From a virus (taxonomy: Duplodnaviria; Caudoviricetes): 44,713 bases of DNA. Positions within the stretch are counted from its first letter, which is position 1. The number at the start of each line of letters is the position of its first letter. The notes beneath the pieces were generated by a model. That model ran no database searches, was not told the DNA's origin, and saw only the letters and a list, made by a program, of their open reading frames with translations. Positions 2 to 21,163 of the stretch are shown in pieces. The stretch covers positions 1-44,713 of IMG/VR virus record IMGVR_UViG_3300043414_001003; one strand, written 5' to 3'. The translations under genes and the position numbers were made by a program.

Positions 2-229
2 ATCTACTATGGTATCAATATCATATCTACTTTGAAATGCATCATCAAAGGTAGTAGTGGGCCATGAATTTAGATCATCTTTTGTCATTATTTCTGCAAA
101 GTCTAAACTAGGATTAAAACAGGTAACTGTATATCCTTGTGTCTGAGCATATGCTTTTAATAGAGCAGGACCAATATGAGGTCCGCCCAACAGTAGAGGA
201 GGAATACTTATTAAGGCACAATCAATCAT
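2..229 (-). CDS. B12-binding-domain radical SAM protein, N-terminal part (runs off window start)
   Basis: Not in ORF track. ATG at 229 overlaps the stop of the upstream gene and reads MIDCALISIPPLLLGGPHIGPALLKAYAQTQGYTV..., resembling the N-terminus of cobalamin-dependent radical SAM enzymes. Frame is open to the edge. Confidence 0.65.
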   Translation of the reverse strand, partial: MIDCALISIPPLLLGGPHIGPALLKAYAQTQGYTVTCFNPSLDFAEIMTKDDLNSWPTTTFDDAFQSRYDIDTIVD

Positions 230-1382
230 ACATGAAACTATTCTTTGGAAACAACGTCAGAAAATTCTTATTTATTTTAGAATCATAGTCATCTAACCAA
301 TTTTTACCTTGTTGAATTACTTTCAAATCAGGTTCTAAATGACTCATGCTATTTGCTAATTTTATAACATAATCTTTATATTTTGCAAATTCTCCGTAAT
401 CTTGTGTTTTTATTATTTCTATTGCTTTTTGTAACCTAGAACCATAAGATTTTATATAAAAATAATCTGGTTTACCAACATAATTATAATGTGGTATATA
501 ATTTCTATATTTCTTGTTTTCCAAGAAATTCAAAATAGTATCAAGATATACAATATTTGTAACATTTAACGCAATATTACACCTTAGTCTTTTCATATTA
601 GGATGATCTTGAAATTTTTGCATAAAGCTGTCAAGGTTCTTTTCAAAAACATTCCATTTAAGTCCTGTTCTTACATATTCACCTTGTTCATGCACACCAT
701 CAATACTAAATCGTAAAAAGAATTCGTGACCACGGTCTAATAATGCTTGAATCTTATCTTCAAATTTAATTCTAAAATATTCACTAAAGTACATATTCGT
801 ACTAAAACTTATAATCTTGATTCCATCACTTAACGGTTTACTTAAGATTAAGTCAAAAAGTTGATCAAATTCTTTTGTTATCACTGGTTCGCCACCAAAC
901 AAACCAAATTCTTTGATGTCTTTATAATGAGTGTCTGCAAATTCTAATATTTTTTTAGATACTTCATCACCTCGATATTTACCAAAATGTTCTTCCCCAA
1001 TAGGAACATCTTGTTCCCAAAGGCTACTACAATTACTACTGCACATTATACATTTTAAATTGCAGAGATTACTAAATTTAATCTCAAGCATTTCTGGAAC
1101 TTTTAAAAAGTCTTGGTCTATTGACTTGTGCATTTTGTCACGCCCCATAGCTTGACGGTAACTGATTGCATTTGAATTTTCTGCATCCCAGCACCGAATG
1201 CACGTAGGGTGTTGTATATTATTTCTCAATGATTTTCGCTGATCTATTAATTCTGCATGATTGAAAAAGTTTAAATCATTTAATTTTTTATAGTCAGCCC
1301 TAGGGCAACTGCGCCACCAACCAAATCCAACATCTATACTATAGGTATACCATGGAAATTCACAATATGTGTTTGAATTCAT
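222..1382 (-). CDS. Radical SAM protein with N-terminal SPASM/twitch-like Cys cluster
   Basis: CNLKCIMC (CxxxCxxC), GGEP and SIDG motifs; N-terminal C...C...CIRC. Confidence 0.9.
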   Translation of the reverse strand: MNSNTYCEFPWYTYSIDVGFGWWRSCPRADYKKLNDLNFFNHAELIDQRKSLRNNIQHPTCIRCWDAENSNAISYRQAMGRDKMHKSIDQDFLKVPEMLEIKFSNLCNLKCIMCSSNCSSLWEQDVPIGEEHFGKYRGDEVSKKILEFADTHYKDIKEFGLFGGEPVITKEFDQLFDLILSKPLSDGIKIISFSTNMYFSEYFRIKFEDKIQALLDRGHEFFLRFSIDGVHEQGEYVRTGLKWNVFEKNLDSFMQKFQDHPNMKRLRCNIALNVTNIVYLDTILNFLENKKYRNYIPHYNYVGKPDYFYIKSYGSRLQKAIEIIKTQDYGEFAKYKDYVIKLANSMSHLEPDLKVIQQGKNWLDDYDSKINKNFLTLFPKNSFMYD

Positions 1383-1390
1383 TAATATAT

Positions 1391-2530
1391 TTATCTATTA
1401 AATAGATGCGGTAATACGGCGCTTGCATCTTGTTTGCGTTTTTTATCCAATGCAACTGTTATTTTTTTGAAATATTCTAATGTTTCTGGTAACGGTTCGA
1501 TGAGAAGTAATTTATATATATGTTGCATTTGAGTTTCATAATTTTTAAACACTGCACTGTTTTTTAAGAAATTCTCATATATTTTATCTCTAGCTGTACT
1601 TGGCATTACGTTTACTGCCAAGTAACTTGGCATAGACAATGTAATATAATTAATAGTAGTATTTGGAAATGCAGTTAACAATTGATGAATTTCAATCATC
1701 TGATGGATGTTTAGATTTTGCACTACTACATTAAATTTCAAATCAATGTTTTTAAAAGCATGAAATTTTTCTATGTTTTTGAAACAGTCATTGAATGTAA
1801 ATTTGTTTGTTCCTCTTATGTAATTATATACTTCCCCTATACCATCTACACTTACAATCAATTGTAATTTAGAAATTTTATGCTGTACACTATCTACCCA
1901 TTCTGGAACTACAGTGCCATTGGTTACAATTAATAATGTAATTTTTTCAGCATTCGGCAATTCTATTAACCTATTTACTAAAGTCTTTGTCTGTGGCATT
2001 ATTAATGGTTCACCACCTTTTAACTCTAGGTAAATTTTACCCTTAACATTTTTAATATGTAGTATTAATTTGTCAATATCATCATCTGAAAGTTGATATC
2101 CATCGAATCCTGTATCAGCATAAAGACCGTTTGCTTGATTAACTAATCCTATTTTATTTAAAAACCTATAATCACTATTCCATAATGAAGAATTACTTGG
2201 ACCACACATTCTGCATTTTAAATTACAGAAGTTACCCATACTGATATCAATCATAAAATCATGTGGTTCCTGCAATCCGGCTCTATCATAAAATTGTCTT
2301 TTACTTCTTAAATTTTTCTTTTCATCATCTTCACACCGTACACATCCTAAGGGAAATTTATCATTTAATAATTCTTCTCTTATTTCAATATATTTTTTAC
2401 TATTGGTAATATCGCTAAAGGAAACAAACTCAGTCACATGTTCCATTTTTTTCTTATATCTAGCACAAGGTCTAATATGTCCTTGTGGATCTATCCAAAA
2501 AGAATTTTTTGATGCGAAGCAATTAATCAT
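1391..2530 (-). CDS. Radical SAM protein with N-terminal SPASM/twitch-like Cys cluster
   Basis: CNLKCRMC, GGEP, TNGT and SVDG motifs; N-terminal C...PC...CVRC; paralogue of 222..1382. Confidence 0.9.
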   Translation of the reverse strand: MINCFASKNSFWIDPQGHIRPCARYKKKMEHVTEFVSFSDITNSKKYIEIREELLNDKFPLGCVRCEDDEKKNLRSKRQFYDRAGLQEPHDFMIDISMGNFCNLKCRMCGPSNSSLWNSDYRFLNKIGLVNQANGLYADTGFDGYQLSDDDIDKLILHIKNVKGKIYLELKGGEPLIMPQTKTLVNRLIELPNAEKITLLIVTNGTVVPEWVDSVQHKISKLQLIVSVDGIGEVYNYIRGTNKFTFNDCFKNIEKFHAFKNIDLKFNVVVQNLNIHQMIEIHQLLTAFPNTTINYITLSMPSYLAVNVMPSTARDKIYENFLKNSAVFKNYETQMQHIYKLLLIEPLPETLEYFKKITVALDKKRKQDASAVLPHLFNR

Positions 2531-3376: not shown

Positions 3377-3468
3377 TGGCGGAAAGCAGAGGAGTCGAAC
3401 CCCATCCCCGTTAAGAGAACCTGGTTTTCAAGGCCAGTCGCAGGACCATCCCCGCTGCATTACTTTCC
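3377..3468 (-). tRNA. tRNA-Ser(TGA)
   Basis: GGAAAGT...GCTTTCC-G-CCA; loop CTTGAAA; long variable arm; G73. Confidence 0.9.
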
Positions 3469-3552: not shown

Positions 3553-3618
3553 AGGAATGGGCTTCTCACCCAATTGGCCCTAGACGGACTGTCGATAGTT
3601 CTCTTTCACACTATCCTG
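3553..3618 (-). ncRNA. Small structured, tRNA-like spacer RNA of unknown function
   Basis: CAGGA...TCCTG termini, hairpin GATAGT/ACTATC and T-arm-like TGGG-TGAGAAG-CCCA; no anticodon arm or CCA. Confidence 0.35.
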
Positions 3619-3707: not shown

Positions 3708-4024
3708 TTCAACATCCCATAGCCGGGATTCTGTTCTATCCTAACATTAATCTTTGCCACAACCCGAATCAATAGCGCAAGTGTTGCCTGACTCTGTTTG
3801 TGTTGCTTGTTGTATCTGGGTAGTTTAACGATAAGTTATACAATGAATTTTGTCAGTTTATTGTTCCACTGCGTCACAACGCTATGATAGTTATACTATC
3901 GCCCTGCTTGGTACCCTACCCATTATGCGAACACTTTGGGGTCAAACGGGATAACTTATCTCCTACACGCACTTGCCACAAGTCCCGAACTTCCTCTGTT
4001 GCCAGCGTTAGGTCGGATGTTGAA
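3708..4024 (-). ncRNA. rnpB: RNase P RNA (phage-encoded, compact ~317 nt)
   Basis: P1 TTCAACATCC/GGATGTTGAA; P2 CCTAACG/TGTTAGG; minimal P3 CTG-GCAA-CAG; CR-I GAGGAAGTTCGGGAC pairs (P4) with CR-V AACAGAATCCCGGCTAT; CR-IV-like AGATTAATG. Confidence 0.88.
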
Positions 4025-6283: not shown

Positions 6284-6366
6284 CCATATAGAAACACACT
6301 AGCTTGCAAGACTACTATTAACTCCACGGGGATGCCGCTGTCAATAGGTAATGTGTTTTTATATGG
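6284..6366 (-). ncRNA. Stem-closed structured element B (~83 nt)
   Basis: Terminal helix CCATATAAAAACACATTA/TAGTGTGTTTCTATATGG with one mismatch; begins at the CCA of tRNA-Thr. Confidence 0.5.
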
Positions 6367-7016: not shown

Positions 7017-7044
7017 ACTCTGTTTTGTTGTTTTTATACAACAC

Positions 7045-7084
7045 AAAAACAAAAACCCCTGAGTACTTTCGTATCCCAGGGGTT
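7045..7084 (-). terminator. Intrinsic terminator (attenuator terminator)
   Basis: AACCCCTGGG-A-TAC-GAAA-GTA-CTCAGGGGTT followed by TTTGTTTTTG. Confidence 0.85.
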
Positions 7085-7110
7085 GAATAAATTTGTTATG
7101 ATGTAACTTG

Positions 7111-7245
7111 TTATTCCGTTCCCCGGGCACCTCTTTGGTTATCATTGCCGCGAATACTTGTAGGATATGATACCGCAAAGGCCGCTAAGGTCTCTATAGA
7201 CCATAGTCCCGTATGTTTCGGCATGTAACAAGTTTTATTCATCAT
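7111..7245 (-). CDS. Putative leader peptide (44 aa) of a translation-coupled attenuator
   Basis: Not in track. MMNKTCYMPKHTGLWSIETLAAFAVSYPTSIRGNDNQRGARGTE*; lies between promoters and a terminator; its last codons pair with the terminator 5' arm. Confidence 0.7.
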   Translation of the reverse strand: MMNKTCYMPKHTGLWSIETLAAFAVSYPTSIRGNDNQRGARGTE

Positions 7246-7252
7246 AGTACTT

Positions 7253-7258
7253 TATTTA
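7253..7258 (-). promoter_or_regulatory. Late promoter core TAAATA upstream of the leader ORF
   Basis: ACTAAATA-AAGTACT-ATG. Confidence 0.55.
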
Positions 7259-7312
7259 GTCCTGGTTAAAAATTACTGCAAATAACATAGTGTTTTTTGC
7301 GTTTATGTGTGT

Positions 7313-7341
7313 ATTATATAGCAGTTTTCAATAGAAGTCAA
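7313..7341 (-). promoter_or_regulatory. sigma70-type promoter upstream of the leader ORF
   Basis: TTGACT-17 nt-TATAAT. Confidence 0.85.
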
Positions 7342-7401: not shown

Positions 7402-8937
7402 ATGTATCATTGTTTATTGTTTAATGTCCATCGCCCCACAACTGGAAGTTGGGAAAGAAGTGCCGGAGTACATCGTATAGCAAATCATTTAAGAGAACAA
7501 GGATGGGATGCAGAGGTGATAGATTTTGCGTCTGCATGGAGTTATGCTCAACTAGAAGCATTAGCTAAATCTAGAATAACTTCAAACACAAAATTCTTTG
7601 GATTTTCTCACATGTTTCAAACAGGGGCGCCGGCCAGAAACTGGCCTATTACTATAGAAAAATTATGTGCTTATATTAAGCAAACATACCCTGACATAAT
7701 TATTATAACAGGTTCACAACATAAACCCAATTTTATGTCCGACCATATTGATTATTCAATCACAGGGTACGGAGAGTACGGGCTAGATGCATTACTAAAA
7801 TACAAATTTAGCAACGGACCAAGACCTAAATTTGATTTAATAAAAGGTGCATCTGGTCAAAAAATGATTCATTCATTAGAAAGTTATCCAGCACACCCAA
7901 TGCGTGAACCAACTGTAATATATGAGAATAGAGATTTCATTTATCCAGGCGAGTGGGGCTCTATTGAATTTAGTCGAGGTTGTAAGTTTTCTTGTTCTTT
8001 TTGTAATTTTCCTGTATTAGGTGTTAAAGGAGATTATACTAGAAGTGCCGAGGGTTTTAGAAATAATATCATGACCAACTATGATAAATTTGGCATAAAA
8101 AATTATATGGTTTCTGATGAAACGTTTAATGATAGCACTGAAAAAATTACCAAATTTGCCAATGTTGTAGAAAAATTGCCCTGGAGACCATATTTTACTG
8201 GCTTTCTTAGGGCTGACTTGTTAGTAAGCCGCGCAAAGGAAAAAGAAGAATTATTGCGTATGGGGTTTTTAGGACATTTTTACGGAATAGAAACTTTTAA
8301 TCATGCCACCGGGAAAATAATAGGAAAAGGAATGCATCCCGAAAAACTACAACAAGGGTTGCTTGATGTTAAAAAATATCTATCAGAAAACAGTAATGAT
8401 ACCTATAGAGGACAAATTAGCATAATATATGGATTACCATTAGAAACAAAACAATCACTCAAGCAAACTGAGCATTGGCTTTTAAATAATTGGCACACTG
8501 AGAGTCTAATCACATGGGGATTGGACTTAACAGACAATGATATTGGTACAAGTCATTCAAAACTTTCATTAAACTATGGAAAATATGGTTATAAAAAAGT
8601 TTCAGGTCCATATAGCTTTAAACAATTCAAGCAATCATTTTATAGTACACCCGGAGAAAATGTTAAAAAAGACAATGATGATAAAGAAGATGACGTAGTT
8701 AATTGGGAAAATGAGCACATGAATCTTGTGTATGCCATGGAGAATGCTAGAAATTTTAAATATAATTTTAAGCTAATTGGTGGCTTTCAATTAGGACAAA
8801 TCTTTATAAACAAAAATACCGGAGAATCCGCGACCATAGAAGAACGGCTTAAGATGGGCGGGCCAGACATAGACGGGGCATATACAGATTTTCCAAAATT
8901 TATAACCAATTATGTTAATAAAAAATTAAGTATTTGA
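7402..8937 (+). CDS. B12-binding-domain radical SAM protein (class B methyltransferase-like)
   Basis: N-terminal cobalamin-binding-like region, EFSRGCKFSCSFC, DETFN, GIET and YGLPLET. Confidence 0.88.
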   Translation: MYHCLLFNVHRPTTGSWERSAGVHRIANHLREQGWDAEVIDFASAWSYAQLEALAKSRITSNTKFFGFSHMFQTGAPARNWPITIEKLCAYIKQTYPDIIIITGSQHKPNFMSDHIDYSITGYGEYGLDALLKYKFSNGPRPKFDLIKGASGQKMIHSLESYPAHPMREPTVIYENRDFIYPGEWGSIEFSRGCKFSCSFCNFPVLGVKGDYTRSAEGFRNNIMTNYDKFGIKNYMVSDETFNDSTEKITKFANVVEKLPWRPYFTGFLRADLLVSRAKEKEELLRMGFLGHFYGIETFNHATGKIIGKGMHPEKLQQGLLDVKKYLSENSNDTYRGQISIIYGLPLETKQSLKQTEHWLLNNWHTESLITWGLDLTDNDIGTSHSKLSLNYGKYGYKKVSGPYSFKQFKQSFYSTPGENVKKDNDDKEDDVVNWENEHMNLVYAMENARNFKYNFKLIGGFQLGQIFINKNTGESATIEERLKMGGPDIDGAYTDFPKFITNYVNKKLSI

Positions 8938-9888
8938 TTCAGTCTCAATCTTAGTTCTAATTTTTTTAAGTTCATCATATATTTTTGCGCCTAGCTTCTC
9001 GCTAGTTATTCTATGATGATGAAATGGGCCAGCGCCGTGAGCATGGAACGGATCCATCCAAATGTCCTCTTGGTCTAATGTAACAAATGGAATCTTTGTT
9101 CTGTAGTGAGTTTTGAATCCTTTTGTACCCAAGTTTGCTAAACGTCTGATGTGTTTAATGTCAGTAGGATCGACCATGATTTTGGTTGGTTTATAAAAGG
9201 GAATCCAGTCTGTGCGTGGTTGTAGTGTAGGAAGTTTTACTATGTTTTTAGTATCAGTGTAGGAAAATTCTGTTAGTAGTGTGTCTACTAATATGCATCT
9301 ATCACCAAATATAGCAATTAATTCTTTAGTAAATTGCTTGAAAAAGTCAATATTTTGTCCAATAACTTCAGCTTGGTCAAAACATCTATGATGTTGAGTT
9401 TTAATTAATTCGTCTGCTAACCAACTAAACGGAGAGTTTGGGTTCTTTAGTAGCTTTATCATGGGAGGAACAATAGTAAATGCTTCATTACTAGTCACAT
9501 ATTTTGTGTATAATTCTGCGCTAAAGTTACATACTAATATATCATTGGGGCCGGCGTTTTCTTGGTAGAATTTAATATAAGGAAATTTTACAATTTCATG
9601 ATATATCCAATAATGATCTATTAATGGCGGACGGTGTCTGATAGAATACATTGTATCAAACACTCGGTTTGCAATTGAGTTTGGTGGGGTATAGTATGAC
9701 AATAAACTAGGTGACCTAATTGGCAATTTACCTACATTAAAGTCCAGATCATATGGTCTATCATTGTAATAATATTTGTCTATGTCAAATTCGCGGCGAA
9801 TTGGTGATATATCGACGGCATCCCAAACATCACACGATCCAAAAACAAAAATTTTAGATTTGGGTACAGTATTACTAGCTAATTCCAT
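8926..9888 (-). CDS. Hypothetical protein, SGNH-like
   Basis: N-terminal IFVFGSCDVWD and C-terminal HxxGxGPFHH, as in SGNH-like DUF6270-type proteins. Confidence 0.5.
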   Translation of the reverse strand: MELASNTVPKSKIFVFGSCDVWDAVDISPIRREFDIDKYYYNDRPYDLDFNVGKLPIRSPSLLSYYTPPNSIANRVFDTMYSIRHRPPLIDHYWIYHEIVKFPYIKFYQENAGPNDILVCNFSAELYTKYVTSNEAFTIVPPMIKLLKNPNSPFSWLADELIKTQHHRCFDQAEVIGQNIDFFKQFTKELIAIFGDRCILVDTLLTEFSYTDTKNIVKLPTLQPRTDWIPFYKPTKIMVDPTDIKHIRRLANLGTKGFKTHYRTKIPFVTLDQEDIWMDPFHAHGAGPFHHHRITSEKLGAKIYDELKKIRTKIETESNT

Positions 9889-11380: not shown

Positions 11381-12319
11381 ATGATGAAAACCCCAGCTAA
11401 AATAGATTTGACAGATATCAATATTGTTACATTAAAAAAAGCAAACGATCCTAGTCTATTTGTATTTTGGGTATTAGGGAATCAATGTACATATTCTTGT
11501 AGCTATTGTCCTGAACGGTTTCATTCTGGTACCTTTAAATATCAACCCACTGAAAAAATACAAAAGTTATTAAAAACTCTCCCTCCTGCTGATGTAATGT
11601 TTAGCGGGGGCGAGGCAACATACCATCCAGACTTTGAAAAAATTGTTTTAGAGAAACCTGATCACATCAAACTAAGTGTAATCAGTAACGCATCTAGACC
11701 AATTGGTTTTTGGGAAAGAATAACAGAAAAACTACATTGCGTAATATTAACATTCCATTCAGAGTTTGCTAACCTAGATAGATTCTTGGCCACTGCTAAT
11801 CTAGTATACAAGGAACACAAACGTTACGGTAGAGTTAATTTAACAATGATACCAGAAAAATGGGACTATTGTATAAATGTTTACAATACGTTAATTGAAA
11901 ACAAAATCCCAGTCATAGCTAAACCATTAGTTGAAAACTTTGGGTCCGGCTCAACTGGATTATTATCCGGCTATACAAGTGAACAACTGAAATGGATTTC
12001 AGAAGTTAGTAGCGAAGGTGAAATAAATGATATCATGTTGCTAGATAAGGATAACAATGTCATTCATAATACTAGCGCACCGGAATTATTAAGTTCACAC
12101 AATACTGACTTCAGAGAATGGGAATGTCATACCAATACTAGTAGAATGTATGTTGATATGGATGGCTCAATCTTTGATACCGTTTGTAAACAACGAACAC
12201 AGACTGGAAGCATATACACCGGGTACACGTTGCCAACTGAACCAATGATATGTAAACAAAACTTCTGCTGGTGTCATTCTGATATCAATGCTAAAAAGAT
12301 AAAGATAACTCCTATATGA
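11381..12319 (+). CDS. Radical SAM protein with C-terminal Cys-rich (SPASM-like) region
   Basis: CTYSCSYC and SGGE motifs; C-terminal WEC...VC...ICKQNFCWC. Confidence 0.9.
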   Translation: MMKTPAKIDLTDINIVTLKKANDPSLFVFWVLGNQCTYSCSYCPERFHSGTFKYQPTEKIQKLLKTLPPADVMFSGGEATYHPDFEKIVLEKPDHIKLSVISNASRPIGFWERITEKLHCVILTFHSEFANLDRFLATANLVYKEHKRYGRVNLTMIPEKWDYCINVYNTLIENKIPVIAKPLVENFGSGSTGLLSGYTSEQLKWISEVSSEGEINDIMLLDKDNNVIHNTSAPELLSSHNTDFREWECHTNTSRMYVDMDGSIFDTVCKQRTQTGSIYTGYTLPTEPMICKQNFCWCHSDINAKKIKITPI

Positions 12320-12822
12320 CAAATTACAAATTAACTGAAGCAGATTTGTTATTAAAAAGAATGATGTTATTAGAAGAACATGCCAAACCACACTATCCTT
12401 CAACTAGCAAAATGTCAGTTACTGGCGGTCTAAAAGAATTAACCAGTGTTTGGTTAGCTAGAGATTGTAACCCTGTTACAGGCACCCCTCTTCCTAAATT
12501 TCGCAGAGATGAAATATCATACTTAGCTGAAGCTGCTAAATTATTAAACAAAACGGTTGATGATATACATTATGCTTACTACGCAATATTGCCACCAGAC
12601 AGTCAGATTTACCCGCACACTGATGTTGCTCCCTACTATCATTCTGTTAATAGATATCAAGTGTTTTTCAACCTAACTGAAGATAACATTGTCATTCAAG
12701 AAGGCAATCTTACAGAAAGCAATAGTGTAGTTTGGTTTGATGCGTCAAAATTACACGCTTTTAAGAACCTATCCAAGACAGATAGCTGGCGCTTTATTGT
12801 GTTTGATATTTACAAAGATTAA
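12316..12822 (+). CDS. Asp/Asn beta-hydroxylase-like 2OG/Fe(II) oxygenase
   Basis: LPPDSQIYPHTD and WFDASKLHAFKN...R. Confidence 0.7.
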   Translation: MTNYKLTEADLLLKRMMLLEEHAKPHYPSTSKMSVTGGLKELTSVWLARDCNPVTGTPLPKFRRDEISYLAEAAKLLNKTVDDIHYAYYAILPPDSQIYPHTDVAPYYHSVNRYQVFFNLTEDNIVIQEGNLTESNSVVWFDASKLHAFKNLSKTDSWRFIVFDIYKD

Positions 12823-13604
12823 TGTAGCAACGGCAAGAAGATTCTACACGGATCATATTCCCACCATTTTCCGCTTACGCTAGTTCCAAAGTCAAACGAT
12901 TTAGGGTCGTGGTGGTGATTGTTGTGCCAGCCTTGTCCCCAAGCAAAGTATCCTAGAAACATATTATTTTGCGAGTTATCATCTAATTCAAAATTTCTGT
13001 ATCCTATCAAACCTTTACTGTGACCGTATACGTTAACTAGATTATCCTGAATTACCCCAATCATTGCTACCAAACAAAATGCGCTTAGTGCTAATTGCCA
13101 ATTTAACAATGCTATTACTAAGGGAACGCCCCACAACACTTTTAAATGATGATGATGGAACCAAACATGGTTGGGCTTTCTTAATAAGTCCACTGCATAC
13201 TTAATGTTAACTGGGTTGTTTGCTTCCGTGACTTTATACTGCCACCCAATGAACGCATTAACCTTACCATATATAGGACTATGTATATCTTTTTCTTTAT
13301 CGGAGTGCGGGTGATGATACCCTCTATGTAGTGCTACCCAGAATATGCTAGCACCTTGTCCAGACAATGTACCGAGGAATAATAAAATGTTTTCTTTCCA
13401 TTTGGGCAATGTATGTGTCTTATGACTGAATACTCTATGATATCCTACTGCCACACCCAACCCACATGCCAATATCCACATTATAAAAGTAAACCAAAGA
13501 TAGTATAGTGGTATTAGTCCCAAAACAAAACACGCAATAGTTATTGATCCTAATATTATTGCGGGTATAAATTGAAACCAAAAAGATTTAGATATGTTTT
13601 TCAT
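12819..13604 (-). CDS. Membrane fatty-acid desaturase (delta-9 type)
   Basis: Three His boxes (HRVFSH, HRGYHH, GWHNNHH) and hydrophobic segments. Confidence 0.92.
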   Translation of the reverse strand: MKNISKSFWFQFIPAIILGSITIACFVLGLIPLYYLWFTFIMWILACGLGVAVGYHRVFSHKTHTLPKWKENILLFLGTLSGQGASIFWVALHRGYHHPHSDKEKDIHSPIYGKVNAFIGWQYKVTEANNPVNIKYAVDLLRKPNHVWFHHHHLKVLWGVPLVIALLNWQLALSAFCLVAMIGVIQDNLVNVYGHSKGLIGYRNFELDDNSQNNMFLGYFAWGQGWHNNHHHDPKSFDFGTSVSGKWWEYDPCRIFLPLLH

Positions 13605-14113
13605 ATGCGGTGTTCTTGTTTAAGATAATAACATCTAATAATTGCGTCGGTGCTTAAAAAGCTACGATTGAATAATACTTCCCAATGATTAGTATAACTA
13701 CATCTAGTTAAGCTAGGAACGAATAACTCATTCACATAAGAATATCGTTCATTTTGATATTTATCCCACAATGATCCTAAGGAATTAAGAGTATAAAACT
13801 TTAATCTTTTATTGTTTTCGTTGTGAAAAATAACCCGATCTAGTAATAGCATGATATCATCATAATCAATTCCCAAATATGAAGTACAGTACCAAGCAGG
13901 ATCCTCATCACTTTCATAGAATGATATTACTGCTTTCAATTCATCATTGATGAAGTACCCATATGCGTGAAAATTATTTAAATTAGTTAAATATATACCA
14001 TTAAACATTTCAAAACTCAATGGATTTGTACTTTTTAATGTGCCTATGTCCATCAATTCTTTTACAACAGTTTGATGTTCCGGTAATAATTTAATTATCA
14101 TATTGATCTCCAA
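13601..14113 (-). CDS. Hypothetical protein, possibly GNAT-fold
   Basis: Translationally coupled ORF; HAYGYFINDELKAVI resembles GNAT strands. Confidence 0.5.
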   Translation of the reverse strand: MEINMIIKLLPEHQTVVKELMDIGTLKSTNPLSFEMFNGIYLTNLNNFHAYGYFINDELKAVISFYESDEDPAWYCTSYLGIDYDDIMLLLDRVIFHNENNKRLKFYTLNSLGSLWDKYQNERYSYVNELFVPSLTRCSYTNHWEVLFNRSFLSTDAIIRCYYLKQEHRI

Positions 14114-15005
14114 ATAGTTGTTTATTCAAATCTTCTATATAAATTCCATCTAAACTGTATTCTAGTCTTTTAGTGTGGCTACGATAAAGACTATTGTAAG
14201 ATTCTATGTTTAACCCCATTAGTCGTTCATACCCATGTGTTTTAGTTTTTTCTATTAGTGTTGGCATCAATGATTTTAGTACTTGATTCTTTGTGCTTAC
14301 ACTAGATAACTTATGCGGTATCTTGTTACTAATAAGGTCTTGTATAACTGGTTCGTTTAAATAATAGCCCATCATTTCGGGAGTATAACTAAACCATTCG
14401 TTGACTAATGGAATATCATATTTCATACTAAATCTAATTGCGCTGGCATCTTCGTTTTCTCTAAAGCAATAGTACCAATTATTATTTGTTTGTCGCAGTA
14501 GCATTTCACCACCCATTATAGCAGGCGCTTGTAATTTTAGTATATGATGATAGACAGTTAAGTACGCTATTTGTCTACAATGAATGGCTGAAGCAAACTC
14601 AAATGCTTGTCCACTTTTATAGAAGTCAACTACATCAAATTCAATTACCTCTAAACTAAGTCCTAAATCTGTAGTTATTTTCTGTGCGATAATCAAGTCA
14701 TTGATATTATAGTCGTTAGCAAACTTAATAAAAACTAGTCTAGGTTTAATTCCTATATCGTTGAATGCTCTTACTACAATTTCGCTATCAGTTCCACCAC
14801 TGAACAATATAATCAAATCTTTGCCAAAATCTTTGTATATTAAGTCAGCGGTACGATATTGTTCTTGTAGCCAATTGCTAGTTTTATAATAATCTAAGTC
14901 AATGGAACCCACATTTACTTTAAATTTGTCATGTGTGGTTCGTCTATAACCAAATGTTCTGTTATCTATACTATATGTAAGATGATTGTTATGTGTGAAA
15001 TTCAT
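14091..15005 (-). CDS. PP-loop (adenine nucleotide alpha hydrolase) protein
   Basis: ILFSGGTDSE PP-loop motif. Confidence 0.7.
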   Translation of the reverse strand: MNFTHNNHLTYSIDNRTFGYRRTTHDKFKVNVGSIDLDYYKTSNWLQEQYRTADLIYKDFGKDLIILFSGGTDSEIVVRAFNDIGIKPRLVFIKFANDYNINDLIIAQKITTDLGLSLEVIEFDVVDFYKSGQAFEFASAIHCRQIAYLTVYHHILKLQAPAIMGGEMLLRQTNNNWYYCFRENEDASAIRFSMKYDIPLVNEWFSYTPEMMGYYLNEPVIQDLISNKIPHKLSSVSTKNQVLKSLMPTLIEKTKTHGYERLMGLNIESYNSLYRSHTKRLEYSLDGIYIEDLNKQLFGDQYDN

Positions 15006-15550
15006 ACATCATCCTTGTATTCGGCTACATATTGCTCAGTGTAGTATACTTCTTTCTTGCCGATTGGTTTAAATTTTTTGTAGATTGCTGGCCAGTTATT
15101 AAACAACCCAGATGTTTTACCAGAGGCGCTTCTTACAAACCATTGATAAATGCTATCATTATAGTCATTACAAGTTATCCATCGTTTGTCGTACTTACTA
15201 GTTTCTTCTATAGCAGCAGGCAATATATAATGACCCATATAATATTTTGTTCTATGTTTTGGATTAACATATGCTCTGGTTATCATTAATGCTACATTAG
15301 TATCTAATTCATATTCATTCCATCCGGCAGAGCATATGAATTCTCCATCTTCTTCTATAACAGAATACTTACCGAAGCCCTCACGGTATCTTCCCTCTTC
15401 TAATATATAGAATAAGTTACCCGGAACATTACTATAGTCCGGGTGATAGTTTTTAATAATAGTATTATCCGTTATTTGTTCTAAAGCTGATGTAAGTAAA
15501 TTTACAGCTTGTTTGTTATTGGTCAAAGAATGGACAGAATGTATTATCAT
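15002..15550 (-). CDS. GNAT-family acyltransferase-like protein
   Basis: FICSAGW...TRAYVNPKHRTKYYMG resembles GNAT motif A. Confidence 0.6.
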   Translation of the reverse strand: MIIHSVHSLTNNKQAVNLLTSALEQITDNTIIKNYHPDYSNVPGNLFYILEEGRYREGFGKYSVIEEDGEFICSAGWNEYELDTNVALMITRAYVNPKHRTKYYMGHYILPAAIEETSKYDKRWITCNDYNDSIYQWFVRSASGKTSGLFNNWPAIYKKFKPIGKKEVYYTEQYVAEYKDDV

Positions 15551-15558
15551 GTGAGTTA

Positions 15559-15575
15559 TATTTAGCAGCTAAATA
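15559..15575. promoter_or_regulatory. Palindromic back-to-back late promoters
   Basis: Perfect inverted repeat TATTTAGC-A-GCTAAATA in the 29-bp gap between divergent genes. Confidence 0.65.
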
Positions 15576-15579
15576 GCAG

Positions 15580-16173
15580 ATGACTACAATTCCAACTTGG
15601 TACTACAAGAGAGCAAATTTGCCAATGGGCAATCAAATTATAAAAGAATTTCAAGATGCATTACCCGCTCTCTTACAGTCGTTAGGCCACAAAGAAAGAA
15701 CTTACAATCAACTCCCGGATATAAATTTAGTTAAAGAGTTAGTCCCTTCATTATCAATTGCACTTAAAGAAATGAACCTGTATAATGTATGGCATAGAGT
15801 ATCATTAGTAGCTGCTTGGCCATATAGACCGTTGCCAGTTCACAGAGACGGATCTGCAACAAAAATACGTGAGTATGCGTTAAATTTTCCTATATATGGG
15901 TGTGAGTATTCTGAAACTTCATTTTATGAGCAAAAAAAAGAATATTCTAATCTACCAGATATAATCCATCAGCGAGTTAATTTATCCGGGGCAGTTTTTT
16001 TAGAACCCAATTCAAAAATAGAAAAGCAACTAGAAAAAGTAGATAGCGTAATAGTCTCAGAACCTACTTGGCTTAAAACCGGAGCATATCATAGTGTTAG
16101 TTCAACTAAGCCTAGGATGGCTGCGTCAGTTAGATTTGAGCCGGAACCGTTTGATTATTTAAATTCATTATAA
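15580..16173 (+). CDS. 2OG/Fe(II) oxygenase-like protein
   Basis: PVHRD...YALNFPI and distal YHSV...PRMAASVRF. Confidence 0.65.
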   Translation: MTTIPTWYYKRANLPMGNQIIKEFQDALPALLQSLGHKERTYNQLPDINLVKELVPSLSIALKEMNLYNVWHRVSLVAAWPYRPLPVHRDGSATKIREYALNFPIYGCEYSETSFYEQKKEYSNLPDIIHQRVNLSGAVFLEPNSKIEKQLEKVDSVIVSEPTWLKTGAYHSVSSTKPRMAASVRFEPEPFDYLNSL

Positions 16174-16994
16174 TCTAAGTCAGCTTGTATGTCTTGTCTG
16201 ATAAAATCAGTTATACATACCTTGTGTTTGTTTTTATTAAAACCCCACATCCATATATCAGCAGGAATTAAATCATTCTCCAAACAATATTTATGTTGAT
16301 GTTTTTTAGCATGTTCAGTAATATATGTTGCTTTGAAGTTTGGTAATATGACTTTAGCACCTTCAACTGCCTGGCAGTTAAAATAATTATAGCTGTATGA
16401 AGCACTTATTGGCATAGTTAATGTTTGTGCTAGGTTGTCCCCAAACACTATGCCTGCCCTCAAGCCCGCTAGCATAAATGATTTACTCAAGCTAAAGGCT
16501 ACTGAATCAAACACACTATCACTTGTATCTAATGTATCCAGTGTAGTTCCATAAAAAGCACAGTCTAAGAATATCTTAGTATTAACACTTTTGCAATGTT
16601 CTTTTAATGGTTCAAACCAAGGGGTAATACACCCCTCATGATTTGGCTGACTAACTATTACATAGCTGTTGGGCTTTATTTTATCTATATCAGAGGGCGA
16701 TATTGCTTTGTAATTATATGGTCTAAGTATAGTATGGTAGAAAGCATAATCTGTATCAAACGCATAAAAGGTATCTATTTTTTTATTCAGATATGCTACT
16801 TGGTTTATGATAGCGTCATGTATTCCATTAGATAGTGCCCAGTCTCTTTTAGTCTCGCACCCCTTAAAATCACTTATCCAATCAACCCACAATTTTCTGT
16901 ACGCAATCAAATCACTTTGATCGCCTTTGTTTTTTATCTCCATCTGAGATAATTTTTCTTGTACTTGACGAGGACAAAAACTATAGACAGCCAT
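16155..16994 (-). CDS. PLP-dependent (fold I) aminotransferase-like protein
   Basis: SQPN, FLDCAF and FSLSKSF-x-LAGLRAG motifs. Confidence 0.75.
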   Translation of the reverse strand: MAVYSFCPRQVQEKLSQMEIKNKGDQSDLIAYRKLWVDWISDFKGCETKRDWALSNGIHDAIINQVAYLNKKIDTFYAFDTDYAFYHTILRPYNYKAISPSDIDKIKPNSYVIVSQPNHEGCITPWFEPLKEHCKSVNTKIFLDCAFYGTTLDTLDTSDSVFDSVAFSLSKSFMLAGLRAGIVFGDNLAQTLTMPISASYSYNYFNCQAVEGAKVILPNFKATYITEHAKKHQHKYCLENDLIPADIWMWGFNKNKHKVCITDFIRQDIQADLDYNEFK

Positions 16995-16995
16995 G

Positions 16996-17487
16996 TTAAT
17001 TATCTACTGCACCAACCAAATGCAATCGGGGTTCTGATGAACAATTCATAAAAGTATGAAAATGTCTAGTATCTGTCCAATATGCGGCACCGGCGGGCAT
17101 ATGTTGTATTATTCCCTTTTTAAAAACAAAGTAGCATTCTCTATTAGTTATTATAGGTATATGTATTCTGGGTGATGAGTCCTGATGCATACTATAGCAA
17201 GTATTTGGGCCCACCCACAAAAATCTAGTACGAATTAATTTGTATTTGTTGATTATTTCTTCAAAAACAGTTCCTTTGTACAAAGGATTTAATTCAGAAT
17301 AAGATTTTTCATTACAATAGTTTTTGCCGGTCGATTCAAGCCATATATCTATACCTTCAGAGCCGATGCGATACTGCAATCCTGATTGCTTCTTATTTGG
17401 TATATCCAACCAAACAATATCATTATTAAGTTTATTAAATTCAGTTAATACCAATTCGCTGTCGATTGTGTCAATTGTTTTTATCAT
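16996..17487 (-). CDS. Asp/Asn beta-hydroxylase-like 2OG/Fe(II) oxygenase
   Basis: YSMHQD...RIHIPIITN and HTFMNCSSEPRLHLV. Confidence 0.75.
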   Translation of the reverse strand: MIKTIDTIDSELVLTEFNKLNNDIVWLDIPNKKQSGLQYRIGSEGIDIWLESTGKNYCNEKSYSELNPLYKGTVFEEIINKYKLIRTRFLWVGPNTCYSMHQDSSPRIHIPIITNRECYFVFKKGIIQHMPAGAAYWTDTRHFHTFMNCSSEPRLHLVGAVDN

Positions 17488-18071
17488 ATATCAAAATACC
17501 AAATAGTAGAATTATATTCTGCGGTGCGAGTGAGTTGTACACGTTGATTTAAAATAGTTTGTAGAAATTTAATATTCATATAAACATCGGGAAATCTATT
17601 TAAATCTCCCATATTAAAATCATGTCCGGCTATTTTACCTCCGGACTTAATTTTAGGCAACCAATAATCTATCCATTCTTTATCAGATGGATTTGTATGT
17701 GCTGCGTCTAAAAATAAAAAATCAATTTGTTGATTCCAATTTAACATATCCGTTGGATCGGATGCTTGTATTGTTGTGATATTTATGCAATCTTTTGTAT
17801 TTTCTAAGAAAGCATCCAACGAACATATTGTTCCAATAGCCGGTTTGTTGGGATATATACTGTCATGTGATGTTTCACCAACTTTCCAATTGCTCCACTT
17901 ATCTATACAATACAATTTTCCTAAAGGTATACTGTGGCTTATTTCCCAACTGCTGCGCCCCAAAAATGACCCAACTTCTACCCCAATACAAGTCTCTGAA
18001 TTATATTCCGTAAATAATTTTCGTAATACGTGACATTCATTTTCTGACATGTAACCGGGTATAGTGTTCAT
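17484..18071 (-). CDS. Class I SAM-dependent methyltransferase (Methyltransf_24-like)
   Basis: VEVGSFLGRS, FLFLDAAH and GGKIAGHDF. Confidence 0.85.
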   Translation of the reverse strand: MNTIPGYMSENECHVLRKLFTEYNSETCIGVEVGSFLGRSSWEISHSIPLGKLYCIDKWSNWKVGETSHDSIYPNKPAIGTICSLDAFLENTKDCINITTIQASDPTDMLNWNQQIDFLFLDAAHTNPSDKEWIDYWLPKIKSGGKIAGHDFNMGDLNRFPDVYMNIKFLQTILNQRVQLTRTAEYNSTIWYFDI

Positions 18072-18625
18072 TTAGTCCCAATCATCATATATCTAGTAAA
18101 ACTAAAATTTGGATATACAAATTCTTTACTACCAGCGTAATTACAATTACTTAATGGATAATAATTGATAAAACTTTCAAGTGATTCAGTATGTACAGTA
18201 TGTTCATCATCATGTATCATGTTATTTCCTTGTATAATTACACGCATTCCTTTAGGAAGATTATTAAACCAATCCATAGTATGAAAATGTTCTGAGGCTG
18301 TATTAATGATTAAATCACAATCGCCCTTTAAAGGAAAAATAGGCTTAGAGCAATCTTCAGTAAATGCCCCAAATCTTTTTTGAAATTTCCAATTTTCATT
18401 AATCATATTTGCAATATCTTTGCAGCTAGGATCTAAGTCAAAACTTTCAATTTGATTTACTTTAAATATACCTCTAGTGAACAATAAGAATGCTGTTATG
18501 GCATACCACCCTCCATATATGTGAGTGGTGTCACTACCCCAATTTAATTTTTCTAGTTCTTCGCACAGCCAAATTTTACTTTCAATTTGACTATTTGTGA
18601 ATGCATCATTATTGAATTCTATCAT
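18068..18625 (-). CDS. Class I SAM-dependent methyltransferase-like protein
   Basis: HIYGGWY, SFDLDP and DLIINTASEH. Confidence 0.65.
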   Translation of the reverse strand: MIEFNNDAFTNSQIESKIWLCEELEKLNWGSDTTHIYGGWYAITAFLLFTRGIFKVNQIESFDLDPSCKDIANMINENWKFQKRFGAFTEDCSKPIFPLKGDCDLIINTASEHFHTMDWFNNLPKGMRVIIQGNNMIHDDEHTVHTESLESFINYYPLSNCNYAGSKEFVYPNFSFTRYMMIGTK

Positions 18626-19155
18626 ACGCTATACATGGAATATACTTCATCTACTAATTTTTGTTGTGGGAAATACAGGTCAGTGTCCCGATATGTAAAT
18701 TGGTACAAGTTTTCACATTTAATTACATTATCAGTTTCGTTAGTTAATAAGTAGTTACAGATGTTTTCTATATTTTTTAATGCAATATCGAACCATTCTA
18801 AACTCTTATCTCTACTATACCCTGACTTACCAAACAAGTATATCCAGCTTTCAGCTATTTGTGACAGGTCTTGTCGTATAATAAACTTGTGAGTGTTTTG
18901 TAACAAGAAAGGTTCAAACGTTCTATGATTCAATACAACAAACTTATCTAAATTATCCTTAACATAATCGCTATCAAATTTAGTTTGTTTAGTATAATTA
19001 GTGTAGGCTTCGTGTGTTAATGGTTTTTGAAAAACACCAGCAGAATCTACAATAGAACGTTGAAACGGTTCGTCAGCAAAATCTTTTCCTAAATGTTCTG
19101 CCAGGTCGATGCAATATCTAGTGGCGCCTGATCTAGGAAAAGCGGTTATAATCAT
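18622..19155 (-). CDS. Sulfotransferase/P-loop-like protein
   Basis: N-terminal AFPRSGAT (PAPS-binding-loop-like) followed by EP and IIR motifs. Confidence 0.55.
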   Translation of the reverse strand: MIITAFPRSGATRYCIDLAEHLGKDFADEPFQRSIVDSAGVFQKPLTHEAYTNYTKQTKFDSDYVKDNLDKFVVLNHRTFEPFLLQNTHKFIIRQDLSQIAESWIYLFGKSGYSRDKSLEWFDIALKNIENICNYLLTNETDNVIKCENLYQFTYRDTDLYFPQQKLVDEVYSMYSV

Positions 19156-19682
19156 CAGATAGCTATCTTACCAATACTGTTAACTATGGAAGCAATTTTT
19201 GCGATGCTGCTTACTTCATTGAAGGTCATGCCTTCTTTCATAACCAACTCATCAGTATAAAATTTAATACTACGATTACATTTACCTACAATACTTGCTG
19301 ATAAGGCATACATGTAGAATTTCTTTTTTGACACCCCAAATGTACTGTTGATACTAGTAAAAGCATCATCTTCAATGTCCTGTGTGTCAGCAAAATTATA
19401 CCAAGTATTATTTCTACCCATCAACGCTGCTGCTGCTTTAGTTGCTTCACGTTCAGCATCGTGCATGAACAACGGACTATTCATTTCAATTTCAAATGCT
19501 AATCCACCGTTGCTTGCTGCTAGTGCTGCTGAATAAGCACAACCGTGTGCGTCAACTTTATCTAAACCATGATTCTCCATGATATACAAAAGATTAGTTT
19601 TGATATCTTCTGCGTGTTCAGGGATACTTTCTTTAACAGATTCTAGCCAGTTGCCGTTAACGGTTATTGGGTTTGGCATCAT
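19155..19682 (-). CDS. AhpD/carboxymuconolactone decarboxylase family protein, degenerate active site
   Basis: IPEHAEDIKTNL, KAAAALMGRNNTWY and ASIVGKC match AhpD; CxxC reads CNRS. Confidence 0.8.
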   Translation of the reverse strand: MMPNPITVNGNWLESVKESIPEHAEDIKTNLLYIMENHGLDKVDAHGCAYSAALAASNGGLAFEIEMNSPLFMHDAEREATKAAAALMGRNNTWYNFADTQDIEDDAFTSINSTFGVSKKKFYMYALSASIVGKCNRSIKFYTDELVMKEGMTFNEVSSIAKIASIVNSIGKIAI

Positions 19683-19813
19683 GGTGTCATTTCCTCATAA
19701 TCTTCCTTACCACACCCGCATTCAGGGCAAACATGATCGTCAGGAAGTTGTTCCCATTTACCTTCGATTGTTTCGTCGTGGACATGGCCACATATTACAC
19801 AAACGTGTTCCAT
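19679..19813 (-). CDS. Rubredoxin (44 aa)
   Basis: Not in track. MEHVCVICGHVHD...LPDDHVCPECGCGKEDY with two CxxCG knuckles; overlaps both neighbours (TAATG, ATGA). Confidence 0.9.
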   Translation of the reverse strand: MEHVCVICGHVHDETIEGKWEQLPDDHVCPECGCGKEDYEEMTP

Positions 19814-20262
19814 TATAGTTCTCCTAATTTTTGTTGATATGCTGCTGCGTGACGTTGTTCAACCTTTTGTAACGCCGCAAAACGTTTTTGTGCTTTAGCT
19901 AACACTGCCTTAAATTGTTCAGCATGTTCTTTGCTTTCTTCAATTTGATGTTGTGCTTCTTTGTAGGCAAAATCATTACCTTCATTGACCGCAGCAGTTG
20001 CCATTCTTGGATACATTGTAGTGAATTCATATGTTTCACCTTCAATGGCTTTTTCTAAACATTCTTTAGTTGATGGCTTACCGATCAACAATTCCAAATG
20101 ACCCCATGCGTGAAGCAATTCTTGATCCGCAGTATGCTCAAAATGTTTAGCAATATCTTCATTACCTTCTTCACGGGCAATCTTTGCGAAATAACGATAT
20201 TTGATATGTGCTTGACTTTCTCCTGACAAAGCACTTTCTAAGTTTTTAATTGTAATAGACAT
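19813..20262 (-). CDS. Rubrerythrin (ferritin-like domain only)
   Basis: ALSGESQA, QELLH, GETYEFTTMYP and ESKEH diiron motifs; SD AAGGAG. Confidence 0.92.
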   Translation of the reverse strand: MSITIKNLESALSGESQAHIKYRYFAKIAREEGNEDIAKHFEHTADQELLHAWGHLELLIGKPSTKECLEKAIEGETYEFTTMYPRMATAAVNEGNDFAYKEAQHQIEESKEHAEQFKAVLAKAQKRFAALQKVEQRHAAAYQQKLGEL

Positions 20263-20318
20263 GATCTCTCCTTGTGTGTAAAAGTCTCTATGAGTATACT
20301 CTACTCATAGATATTTAG

Positions 20319-20480
20319 CTACATATTTGGGTCAATCTTCTTTTTACGCAATTTTAGTTGCTCTCTGTACCAAGCTACTGCTGCGTCACGATCTTGTTTG
20401 GCGAGTTCTTCTGTTTTTTTATTGCGAATATGTTTAATGGTAAAAAATATACCAATCACAATCAATAGTAGAAGTAACAC
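20319..20480 (-). CDS. Small membrane-anchored hypothetical protein (53 aa)
   Basis: Not in track. GTG start, (M)LLLLLIVIGIFFTIKHIRNKK...; fills the intergenic gap. Confidence 0.5.
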   Translation of the reverse strand: MLLLLLIVIGIFFTIKHIRNKKTEELAKQDRDAAVAWYREQLKLRKKKIDPNM

Positions 20481-20484
20481 TACA

Positions 20485-20781
20485 TTAATCTTCTTTTATA
20501 TACAACCCGTTACTACGTTTATCTCTAGGATGATCTATATCCTGATCAAACTTTCGTTCTTTAAGTGTTTTTTCACCAAACACTTTTTCACTATGACATA
20601 TTAAACATTTTGGATTACCACAATCTAAAGCGTGATGTTTTGCCAATCTGTGCGGTTCTTTAATGAATTTTGTATGTCCCATATGCCCCATTTCTTTAAC
20701 AATTTTCAATTGTTTATGAATGGCATTGTCATCCTTAAGCAATCTTCTACTATGCTTAAGTTTATCAGTTTCAGTACTCAT
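20485..20781 (-). CDS. Hypothetical basic protein with CGNPKCLIC metal-binding motif
   Basis: 98 aa ORF immediately after iscU. Confidence 0.75.
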   Translation of the reverse strand: MSTETDKLKHSRRLLKDDNAIHKQLKIVKEMGHMGHTKFIKEPHRLAKHHALDCGNPKCLICHSEKVFGEKTLKERKFDQDIDHPRDKRSNGLYIKED

Positions 20782-20782
20782 A

Positions 20783-21163
20783 TTAATGTTTCTTTCTATA
20801 ATCTTCTACTGCGGCTTTGATGGCGTCTTCGGCGAGGATAGAGCAGTGGATTTTAACTGGGGGGAGGGCGAGGTGTTCGGCGATGGTAGAGTTTTTGAGG
20901 GTTGCAGCTTCATCCAATGTTTTACCCTTGACCCACTCAGTGACAAGACTTGAACTAGCAATTGCCGACCCGCACCCATATGTCTTAAATTTTGCATCTG
21001 ATATTATTCCTGTTAACGGGTCTACTTTAATTTGCAGTTTCATTACATCACCGCATGCGGGGGCACCGACCATTCCCGTACCCACATCTTCATCTTCTTT
21101 ACCAAAACTACCTACGTTACGTGGATTTTCGTAGTGGTCAACAACTTGCTGTGAATATGCCAT
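20783..21163 (-). CDS. iscU: Fe-S cluster scaffold IscU
   Basis: DHYENPRNVG, GAPACGD, YGCGSAIAS and LPPVKIHCS. Confidence 0.97.
   Translation of the reverse strand: MAYSQQVVDHYENPRNVGSFGKEDEDVGTGMVGAPACGDVMKLQIKVDPLTGIISDAKFKTYGCGSAIASSSLVTEWVKGKTLDEAATLKNSTIAEHLALPPVKIHCSILAEDAIKAAVEDYRKKH

Follow-up and report, generated by a model that had tools for sequence, protein, structure and literature searches.

A 44-codon open reading frame (ORF) encoding all 20 amino acids was found between a promoter and a set of tRNA genes on the minus strand (7245-7111) of a 44,713-nucleotide stretch of viral DNA, referred to here as the window. This leader is probably a ribosome-speed attenuator of transcription which, as judged from its sequence and predicted folding, would admit RNA polymerase to the tRNA array upon slow decoding of any amino acid or by most classes of tRNA. 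In the proposed mechanism, a ribosome that keeps pace would reach codon 39 or later and cover positions 7127-7111, and an intrinsic terminator would form downstream of the ORF. A ribosome delayed at codons 2 to 38 would leave this arm free, and an antiterminator could then form ahead of the 3′ arm of the terminator, resulting in read-through. In transcripts from the upstream promoter, P1, a vacant start region would pair with the terminator arm, such that failed initiation would also favor read-through; a second promoter, P2, would supply a basal level of expression to which the leader adds an inducible increment. The likely trigger would be depletion of host tRNAs in charged or intact form through starvation or anticodon nucleases. 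That the ORF is translated, that transcripts end at the terminator, that read-through is regulated and what sets it off are inferences from computational analyses of the sequence. The original prediction had described this region as a pan-codon attenuator of a tRNA operon. Its architecture and the idea of selection on composition in relatives were upheld, and all of its coordinates for P1, a TAAATA promoter, the ORF, the terminator and P2 hold, but the term pan-codon was inaccurate, the switch must be kinetic, a second helix is predicted and the array is likely to be longer.

Amino acid and codon content of the leaders

A recount of the window ORF confirmed 44 sense codons, of which 36 are distinct, specifying all 20 amino acids without runs of one or a few residues, many amino acids, Trp15, His11 and Cys6 among them, being present only once. 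The ORF is not pan-codon, as 25 of the 61 codons are missing, but it contains 30 of the 32 tRNA decoding classes, lacking only Leu CUY and Val GUY. Its codon diversity had been proposed to exceed that of random coding windows, and only 2 of 11,533 44-codon windows from 36 coding sequences (CDSs) of the window reached 36 distinct codons, with all 20 amino acids being present in 1.2% of these windows. Neutral nulls gave weaker results, with nucleotide shuffling yielding P values of 0.016 for codons and 0.029 for the 20 amino acids and a uniform synonymous null a P value of 0.09. The window ORF alone is thus modestly unusual relative to neutral nulls, and the strength of the case comes from the family.

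Related leaders were gathered with three different anchors. A peptide-derived pattern detected 25 viral loci, and a motif of the 5′ untranslated region (UTR), which is independent of the peptide, detected at least 120. Among the matches listed, there were 84 distinct candidates of 35 to 70 codons, and the 79 with a terminator (a hairpin with a free energy of at most −10 kcal/mol followed by a T-rich tail) were defined as the family; the other five comprised two ORFs truncated by the end of a contig, each encoding 20 amino acids, and three without a terminator, with 14 to 18. The 79 members encode 68 peptides of 44 to 59 residues with a mean identity of 44%, of which 61 contain 20 amino acids and 7 contain 19. 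Among 35 representatives with <80% identity, 32 were complete, as compared to 6.3 expected by column resampling (maximum of 14 in 2,000 draws) and 2.1 expected from length-matched CDS windows, these nulls not being fully corrected for the tree. The other five frames of the same leaders were complete in only 1 to 5 cases and contained averages of 1.8 to 4.3 stops. The third anchor, the terminator, produced 57 peptides, of which 52 were complete, after omission of 6 of the 83 matches that had neither a leader nor a tRNA. A held-out set of 66 new peptides contained 58 with 20 amino acids, 8 with 19 and none with fewer, and 16 of the 21 with <80% identity to any earlier peptide were complete; four ORFs without terminators (14, 19, 20 and 20 amino acids) that did not resemble the family on visual inspection were excluded from this set. 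In total, 134 distinct peptides were obtained among the matches listed, 119 with 20 amino acids and 15 with 19. A neutral ORF beside a constitutive terminator, selected by chance or ascertainment, could account for the modest values of the single window ORF (P of 0.02 to 0.09) but is contradicted by completeness in the 35 representatives, the terminator-anchored set and the held-out set, by the agreement of three different anchors and by the numbers of stops in the other frames; we regard this explanation as extremely improbable.

The positions of the residues were more variable than their presence. Of the 66 directional cases, from 22 disjoint pairs, in which an amino acid was lost from its column, it was present elsewhere in the peptide in 62 (31 expected), a count that includes both directions and some one-column shifts. 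Residues present as a sole copy were kept in 234 of 277 cases, as compared to 836 of 1,181 for repeated residues (odds ratio, 2.6). As judged from these comparisons, selection acts on the completeness of the amino acid content. The peptide itself could instead be functional, or its nascent chain could stall the ribosome at a Ser-Ile-Arg block (7158-7150), with the terminator ending the gene or responding to that motif. Relatives had been expected to keep codon diversity and a covarying hairpin but not the peptide, and while the first two were kept, the peptide is partly conserved (the 44% identity noted above), with a pN/pS ratio of 0.38 (14 pairs above 70% identity) and a near-constant Ser-Ile-Arg block that is conserved at the DNA level in alignments. 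However, rare residues shift position yet persist, completeness follows the RNA arm described below and not the end of the ORF, and the block is absent or broken in L067, L209, L365, L401 and L446. Furthermore, the leader ORF had no Pfam or PHROG match, and Phosso and G006 share the design with leader peptides that have no detectable homology to this family. A function of the peptide is, hence, unlikely. The ORF is a short sequence under coding selection that sits between a promoter and tRNA or other RNA genes.

Codon choice was examined separately from amino acid content. The leaders contained an average of 37.1 distinct codons, as compared to 33.7 to 35.8 under three synonymous nulls, and covered 28.4 of 32 decoding classes, as compared to 26.7 to 27.4 (0 of 1,000 draws for each null); these nulls ignore the tree. 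The same codon was reused for a repeated amino acid in 513 of 2,048 pairs, with 701 expected. Codons for Ser AGY and UCR, Leu UUR and CUR, both Gly classes and both Ile classes (33/35 and 35/35 leaders) were nearly always present, whereas Leu CUY (present in 12 of 35), Val GUY (in 10) and Arg CGG (in 5) were often missing. The Ser-Ile-Arg block alone supplies three tRNA classes, and class coverage may be due in part to a few inherited codons. The anticodons of the arrays were weakly correlated with the codon classes of the leaders (rho = 0.43; P = 0.052), and a tRNA for Arg CGR was present in 7/7 arrays, with CGR codons in 8/35 leaders. The small excess of about one class, the contribution of a single block and the weak fit to the anticodons are compatible with a leader that senses only amino acid starvation or a general slowing due to antibiotics or dormancy, with class coverage being incidental. 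Codon reuse below expectation and the near-constant presence of both Ile classes argue against such a leader, as does the consideration that tRNA output would presumably not remedy a missing amino acid, and we consider it very unlikely. The leader thus seems to poll all of the amino acids and most tRNA classes, but not all codons.

Searches for the leader outside these viral records produced few matches. The UTR motif was present at 66 loci in 185,579 prokaryote genomes, 12 of which had an ORF of 30 to 75 codons, and only one of these was a leader. This leader was located on a contig of a Neisseriaceae metagenome-assembled genome, which is probably phage DNA and provides only a weak hint of the host. 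For a cultured homologue of the family leader, blastn detected only weak matches to the promoter region and tblastn nothing credible. Pieces of related leaders were present in the contigs of all four RNA runs; some crossed the terminator and one spanned P1, so that an origin from DNA is possible.

Competing structures at the terminator

The terminator (7084-7045) consists of a predicted hairpin at 7084-7054 followed by a U tract. The stretch containing it (7036-7100) had a folding z score of −4.5, and a mechanical terminator scan did not list it. The antiterminator (7127-7075) pairs 7127-7121 with 7081-7075, 7116-7111 with 7090-7085 and 7107-7104 with 7098-7095. This hairpin, proposed to join the end of the ORF to the 5′ arm of the terminator, folded exactly as drawn and is mutually exclusive with the terminator. 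When the 3′ arm of the terminator was left off (7066-7135), the antiterminator had a free energy of −20.3 kcal/mol (z = −3.5); when the 3′ arm was included, the terminator outcompeted it.

With the 3′ arm omitted, the 5′ arm of the terminator paired into the ORF in all of 48 leaders with <90% identity, and the z score of this antiterminator was below −2 in 42 of the 48. Covariation was detected in 6 pairs (10 cells) of the long leaders and 5 pairs (14 cells) of the short leaders, and neither cell count was matched in any of 500 shuffles, the structure tested having been derived from these same sequences. The last amino acid needed for a full set was encoded two or more codons ahead of the antiterminator arm in 44 of 48 leaders (11.5 expected from shuffles of codon order) and in all 66 of the held-out leaders (18.4 expected), a pooled count of 110 of 114 (30 expected). 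For a ribosome with this completing amino acid in its A site, the distance from the P site to the first paired base was at least 11 nt in 44 of 48 leaders and 11 to 16 nt in 36 of 48 (median, 13.5 to 14 nt), which places this base close to the leading edge of the ribosome. The arm of long-type leaders begins some 11 codons ahead of the stop codon.

Effects of ribosome position were examined by folding. For the window leader folded from the ATG, the antiterminator had a probability of 0.58 to 0.83 with the A site at codons 2 to 38 and of ≤0.02 from codon 39, codons 2 to 38 being the predicted sensing zone; the same test with Escherichia coli thrL gave 1.0 versus 0.18. With a ribosome masked at the stop codon, the antiterminator persisted in 33 of 48 leaders. 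With the full transcript, the terminator won in most ribosome states, and the same was observed with thrL, trpL, hisL and leuL. The ribosome had been proposed to set the choice between the folds; as the terminator is favored at equilibrium, in the E. coli controls as well, any read-through must be kinetic. Equilibrium dominance of the terminator was considered as an objection to attenuation and was dropped, since the four E. coli leaders behave alike. In the absence of a ribosome, the antiterminator had a predicted probability of >0.5 in 48/48 leaders, such that untranslated transcripts would not terminate by default. No T-box or other riboswitch was detected in the leader with Rfam.

A second helix, overlooked in the original prediction, involves a conserved motif of the 5′ UTR (7265-7251) with CCAGG and an A-rich arm. 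This segment is predicted to pair with the 5′ arm of the terminator and the strand following the stop codon and would be a second antiterminator in P1 transcripts. For all ribosome positions tested on the P1 transcript of the window, the terminator arm was predicted to be sequestered in the UTR helix (0.67). The helix formed in 47 of 48 relatives after masking of the first antiterminator arm, and the real UTR outpaired a shuffled UTR in 35 of 35. The variable part of the UTR preferred its own partner in long leaders (0 of 5,000 permutations), with a P value of 0.08 in short leaders; the CCAGG part was also a search anchor. One pair of the helix covaried in 5 of 23 long leaders, with little covariation in short leaders. 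A possible Shine-Dalgarno sequence, AGGA, is present within the motif, 14 nt 5′ of the ATG, and none was found at the usual spacing before the ATG. On this folding evidence, the odds that the UTR helix is functional are about even. It may be a trigger responding to failed initiation or a source of leakiness, and it would make the switch less responsive except where a ribosome covers the start region or the long-range pairing is slow. A separate protector helix between the start region and the post-stop strand was supported only in short leaders (20/25 versus 10/23) and was merged into the UTR helix.

Promoters and the downstream tRNA array

P1 (7341-7313; TTGACT-17-TATAAT) and P2 (7016-6988; with TG) are sigma70-type promoters, each with an 11/12 match, and were the best two among 67 sigma70-like sites in the 12 kb scored. 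A P1-like site with a match of at least 10/12 was present upstream of the leader in 43 of 48 relatives, as compared to 15% of random stretches. P2, already noted in the original prediction as a second strong promoter, lies 3′ of the terminator and, hence, bypasses it; a promoter of this type follows the terminator in 29 of the 42 relatives with enough DNA. The TAAATA element (7258-7253) is likely to be a phage promoter producing a nearly leaderless transcript, as judged from its position relative to start codons. In related loci, 28 of 251 TAAATA sites ended 4 to 5 nt 5′ of true ORF starts, as compared to 0/195, 0/227 and 1/296 for three control hexamers, and in the window TAAATA was located 4 to 8 nt 5′ of the start in 8 of 41 ORFs. 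By analogy to T4, it would be a promoter of the late class. No match to Sigma70_r2 was found in the 5 genomes profiled. The placement of TAAATA 4 to 8 nt before many start codons of the window (e.g., 1382, 4122, 8926-9888, 11381 and 15580) suggests that nearly leaderless mRNAs are widespread across it, and several of the genes concerned are oriented against the tRNA array.

The first tRNA block (6747-3137, minus strand) contains 13 tRNAs for 12 amino acids, comprising twelve tRNAs called in the window and an additional Ser(UGA)-like gene at 3381-3468. In G007, which matches the window in leader type and gene order, the array runs to 35 tRNAs for 20 amino acids, indicating that the window is likely to be cut inside the array. 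A mismatch between 20 amino acids sensed and 12 supplied was, hence, rejected as an objection, close relatives continuing the array. Seven long arrays located behind leaders had 25 to 41 tRNAs for 19 or 20 amino acids in 10 to 22 kb.

Several internal sigma70-like promoters were present along every long array examined. The leader could, therefore, be a real attenuator of minor importance, with P2 and the internal promoters making nearly all of the tRNA and the leader adding little or gating only the nearest RNA. P2 in 29/42 relatives is consistent with such a role, and the UTR helix could make read-through from P1 the default. On the other hand, no P2 of at least 10/12 was present in 13 of the 42 leaders, TAAATA was found 3′ of the terminator (up to 300 nt of DNA) in only 2 of 48, the 13-tRNA block of the window has no further strong promoter inside it, and selection on single codons is strong. 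A minor role is improbable in our view, somewhat less so than a functional peptide. Given P2 and the internal promoters, the attenuator probably accounts for an inducible fraction of the output, chiefly that of the first block.

Other RNAs are encoded by the same region. The first element after P2 is a structured RNA (6942-6844), identified from a 17-sequence alignment and at least 17 related loci, with an AACGAG loop and an apparent pseudoknot; 3 of its 7 predicted pairs covary, and no Rfam family was found for it. Inside the array, an RNase P RNA-like gene with approximate ends (4025-3700, minus strand) had been included in the predicted operon together with the tRNAs; the tRNAs were called, while the RNase P RNA was detected only below the Rfam gathering score (RNaseP_arch, 3710-3852, 3′ part only; E = 0.002; 18.4 bits versus a gathering score of 84). 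Conserved motifs of RNase P RNA are apparent by eye in this stretch, which may be a divergent gene of this kind; no match to it was found among cultured phages.

Several minor features of the arrays were observed. A tRNA-Leu with an AAG anticodon, which is rare in bacteria, is present at 3698-3622 (minus strand) and shared with G007 and G010, Thr-AGT is present in G004, and Ile-TAT is present in G004 and G010. A hairpin-bounded element not called as a tRNA occupies the gap between tRNA-Gln and tRNA-Glu (6667-6609, minus strand), with comparable elements near 3553-3612 and 6290-6355. In L295, L296, L297 and L298, a 73-codon ORF that resembles the omega subunit of RNA polymerase, by a motif noted by eye, lies directly 5′ of tRNA-Trp. 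The 524-kb record G001, which holds L295 and L296, has two tRNA arrays, both preceded by a complete leader of their own, and is possibly a chimera of two genomes. The flanks of the array in the window (222-2530, 7402-8937 and 11381-21163) encode four radical SAM proteins, a desaturase, a hydroxylase, a methyltransferase, rubrerythrin and NifU-like proteins. A T4-type major capsid gene was present in five related genomes and was 63 to 66% identical to those of cultured jumbo phages.

Known regulatory systems and cultured phages

The leader shares with E. coli thrL, trpL, hisL and leuL a leader ORF, competing antiterminator and terminator structures and a kinetic pattern of folding, which is clearest for thrL. 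The E. coli leaders differ in using runs of one or two amino acids and in governing biosynthetic genes, whereas the phage leaders precede tRNAs and other RNAs. When untranslated, the E. coli leaders favor termination (arm paired upstream, 0.06 to 0.42) and the phage leaders favor the antiterminator (48/48). The pheM leader of E. coli pheST and the T-box riboswitches tie the supply of translation components to tRNA charging, but each senses one amino acid, the T-boxes by binding tRNA directly, while the phage leaders would poll all of them.

By analogy of design, the closest precedent is the upstream ORF (uORF) of whiB7/wblC in mycobacteria, for which the available text describes stalling that leads to an antiterminator and read-through, sensing by a single Trp codon and increased read-through upon loss of the start codon (PMC10274678). 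Both are broad-composition uORFs with a terminator and an antiterminator; by the same text, the uORF of Mycobacterium smegmatis has all amino acids except Cys, and whiB7 uORFs are Ala rich (25 to 40%) with several amino acids missing in other species (PMC10274678). The phage leaders, in contrast, have 7.5% Ala, keep completeness, are viral and have tRNA as output, the whiB7 output being a transcription factor. The leader would work in the manner of a leader-peptide attenuator and yet lies outside the amino acid operon and whiB7 families.

Induction of a long tRNA array by translational stress has been described for the trn operon of Anabaena (PMC8421152, PMC10272220), where control is by a repressor, TrcR, according to the available texts; the words attenuation and leader were not found in the main text of PMC8421152. 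Counter-defense by phage tRNAs, as described in the available text for tRNA-Tyr of T5 versus retron-Eco7, offers a likely selective reason for the leader, since host nucleases deplete tRNAs and the level of phage tRNA counts, although in T5 this level is set by a strong promoter (PMC11555353; the string attenuat was not found in its main text). A survey of jumbo phages also treats tRNA arrays as counter-defense, and neither leader nor attenuat was found in its available text (PMC7824862). In the literature covered, mostly openly available texts without supplements, no leader attenuator on tRNA genes was found; a prior description is possible.

The presence of tRNA genes in phages has long called for an explanation, with codon bias, host tRNA degradation and anticodon nuclease defense as proposed answers. 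A switch that senses slowing at any amino acid would, if true, mean that the arrays are made on demand and would favor the rescue explanations. The arrays would, in that case, be induced by a trigger that is legible in the leader and can be tested codon by codon. The leaders also show selection for a complete peptide composition rather than for a particular sequence. The leader is also a potential 200-nt general reporter of translation stress.

The layout of leader, antiterminator and terminator was detected in 3 of 9 cultured jumbo phages for which parts of the arrays were scanned: Phosso, Atu_ph07 and SCTP-2. The stretches scanned in Paride, Vibrio 2.275.O, PBECO4, GAP32, XacN1 and BF contained no such leader, two weak candidates in 2.275.O and GAP32 being left uncounted. 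Sinorhizobium phage Phosso, which grows on Sinorhizobium meliloti and is a cultured system for testing the switch, has a leader region with bypass promoters before its tRNA array (L318, 1755-1980; PV764938.1, 419754-419980). Its gene 599 has 54 codons, a Shine-Dalgarno sequence and 19 amino acids, with an antiterminator z score of −5.2 and the first paired base at +11. The missing residue is Cys, which is also absent from the leader of its one relative, and the Phosso block of 41 tRNAs lacks tRNA-Cys. The start region of Phosso is complementary to the 5′ arm of the antiterminator, with a compensatory change in L331 noted by eye, and such pairing would give the opposite default, i.e., termination when untranslated.

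The leader of Agrobacterium phage Atu_ph07 (L336) has 42 codons, 18 amino acids and a z score of −3.1; it lacks Leu, yet a tRNA-Leu is encoded downstream. Salicola phage SCTP-2 (L339) has three leaders (genes 335, 351 and 364, annotated as hypothetical) with z scores of −5.5 to −7.3. Each of the three is enriched in amino acids served by its own tRNA block and fits this block best (0.38, 0.60 and 0.50), the third only narrowly. We somewhat favor a general scheme in which jumbo phages would gauge the whole decoding capacity of the host through a leader selected for all amino acids and most tRNA classes and an initiation-sensing helix and induce their own tRNA set when any tRNA is removed by defense or starvation, with other jumbo phages splitting the device into block-matched leaders. 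In a more distant T4-like phage (L211 in G006), a 38-codon leader with 19 amino acids and a similar terminator is followed by 28 tRNAs, and neither this leader nor the set of tRNAs called in the retrieved stretch includes Glu.
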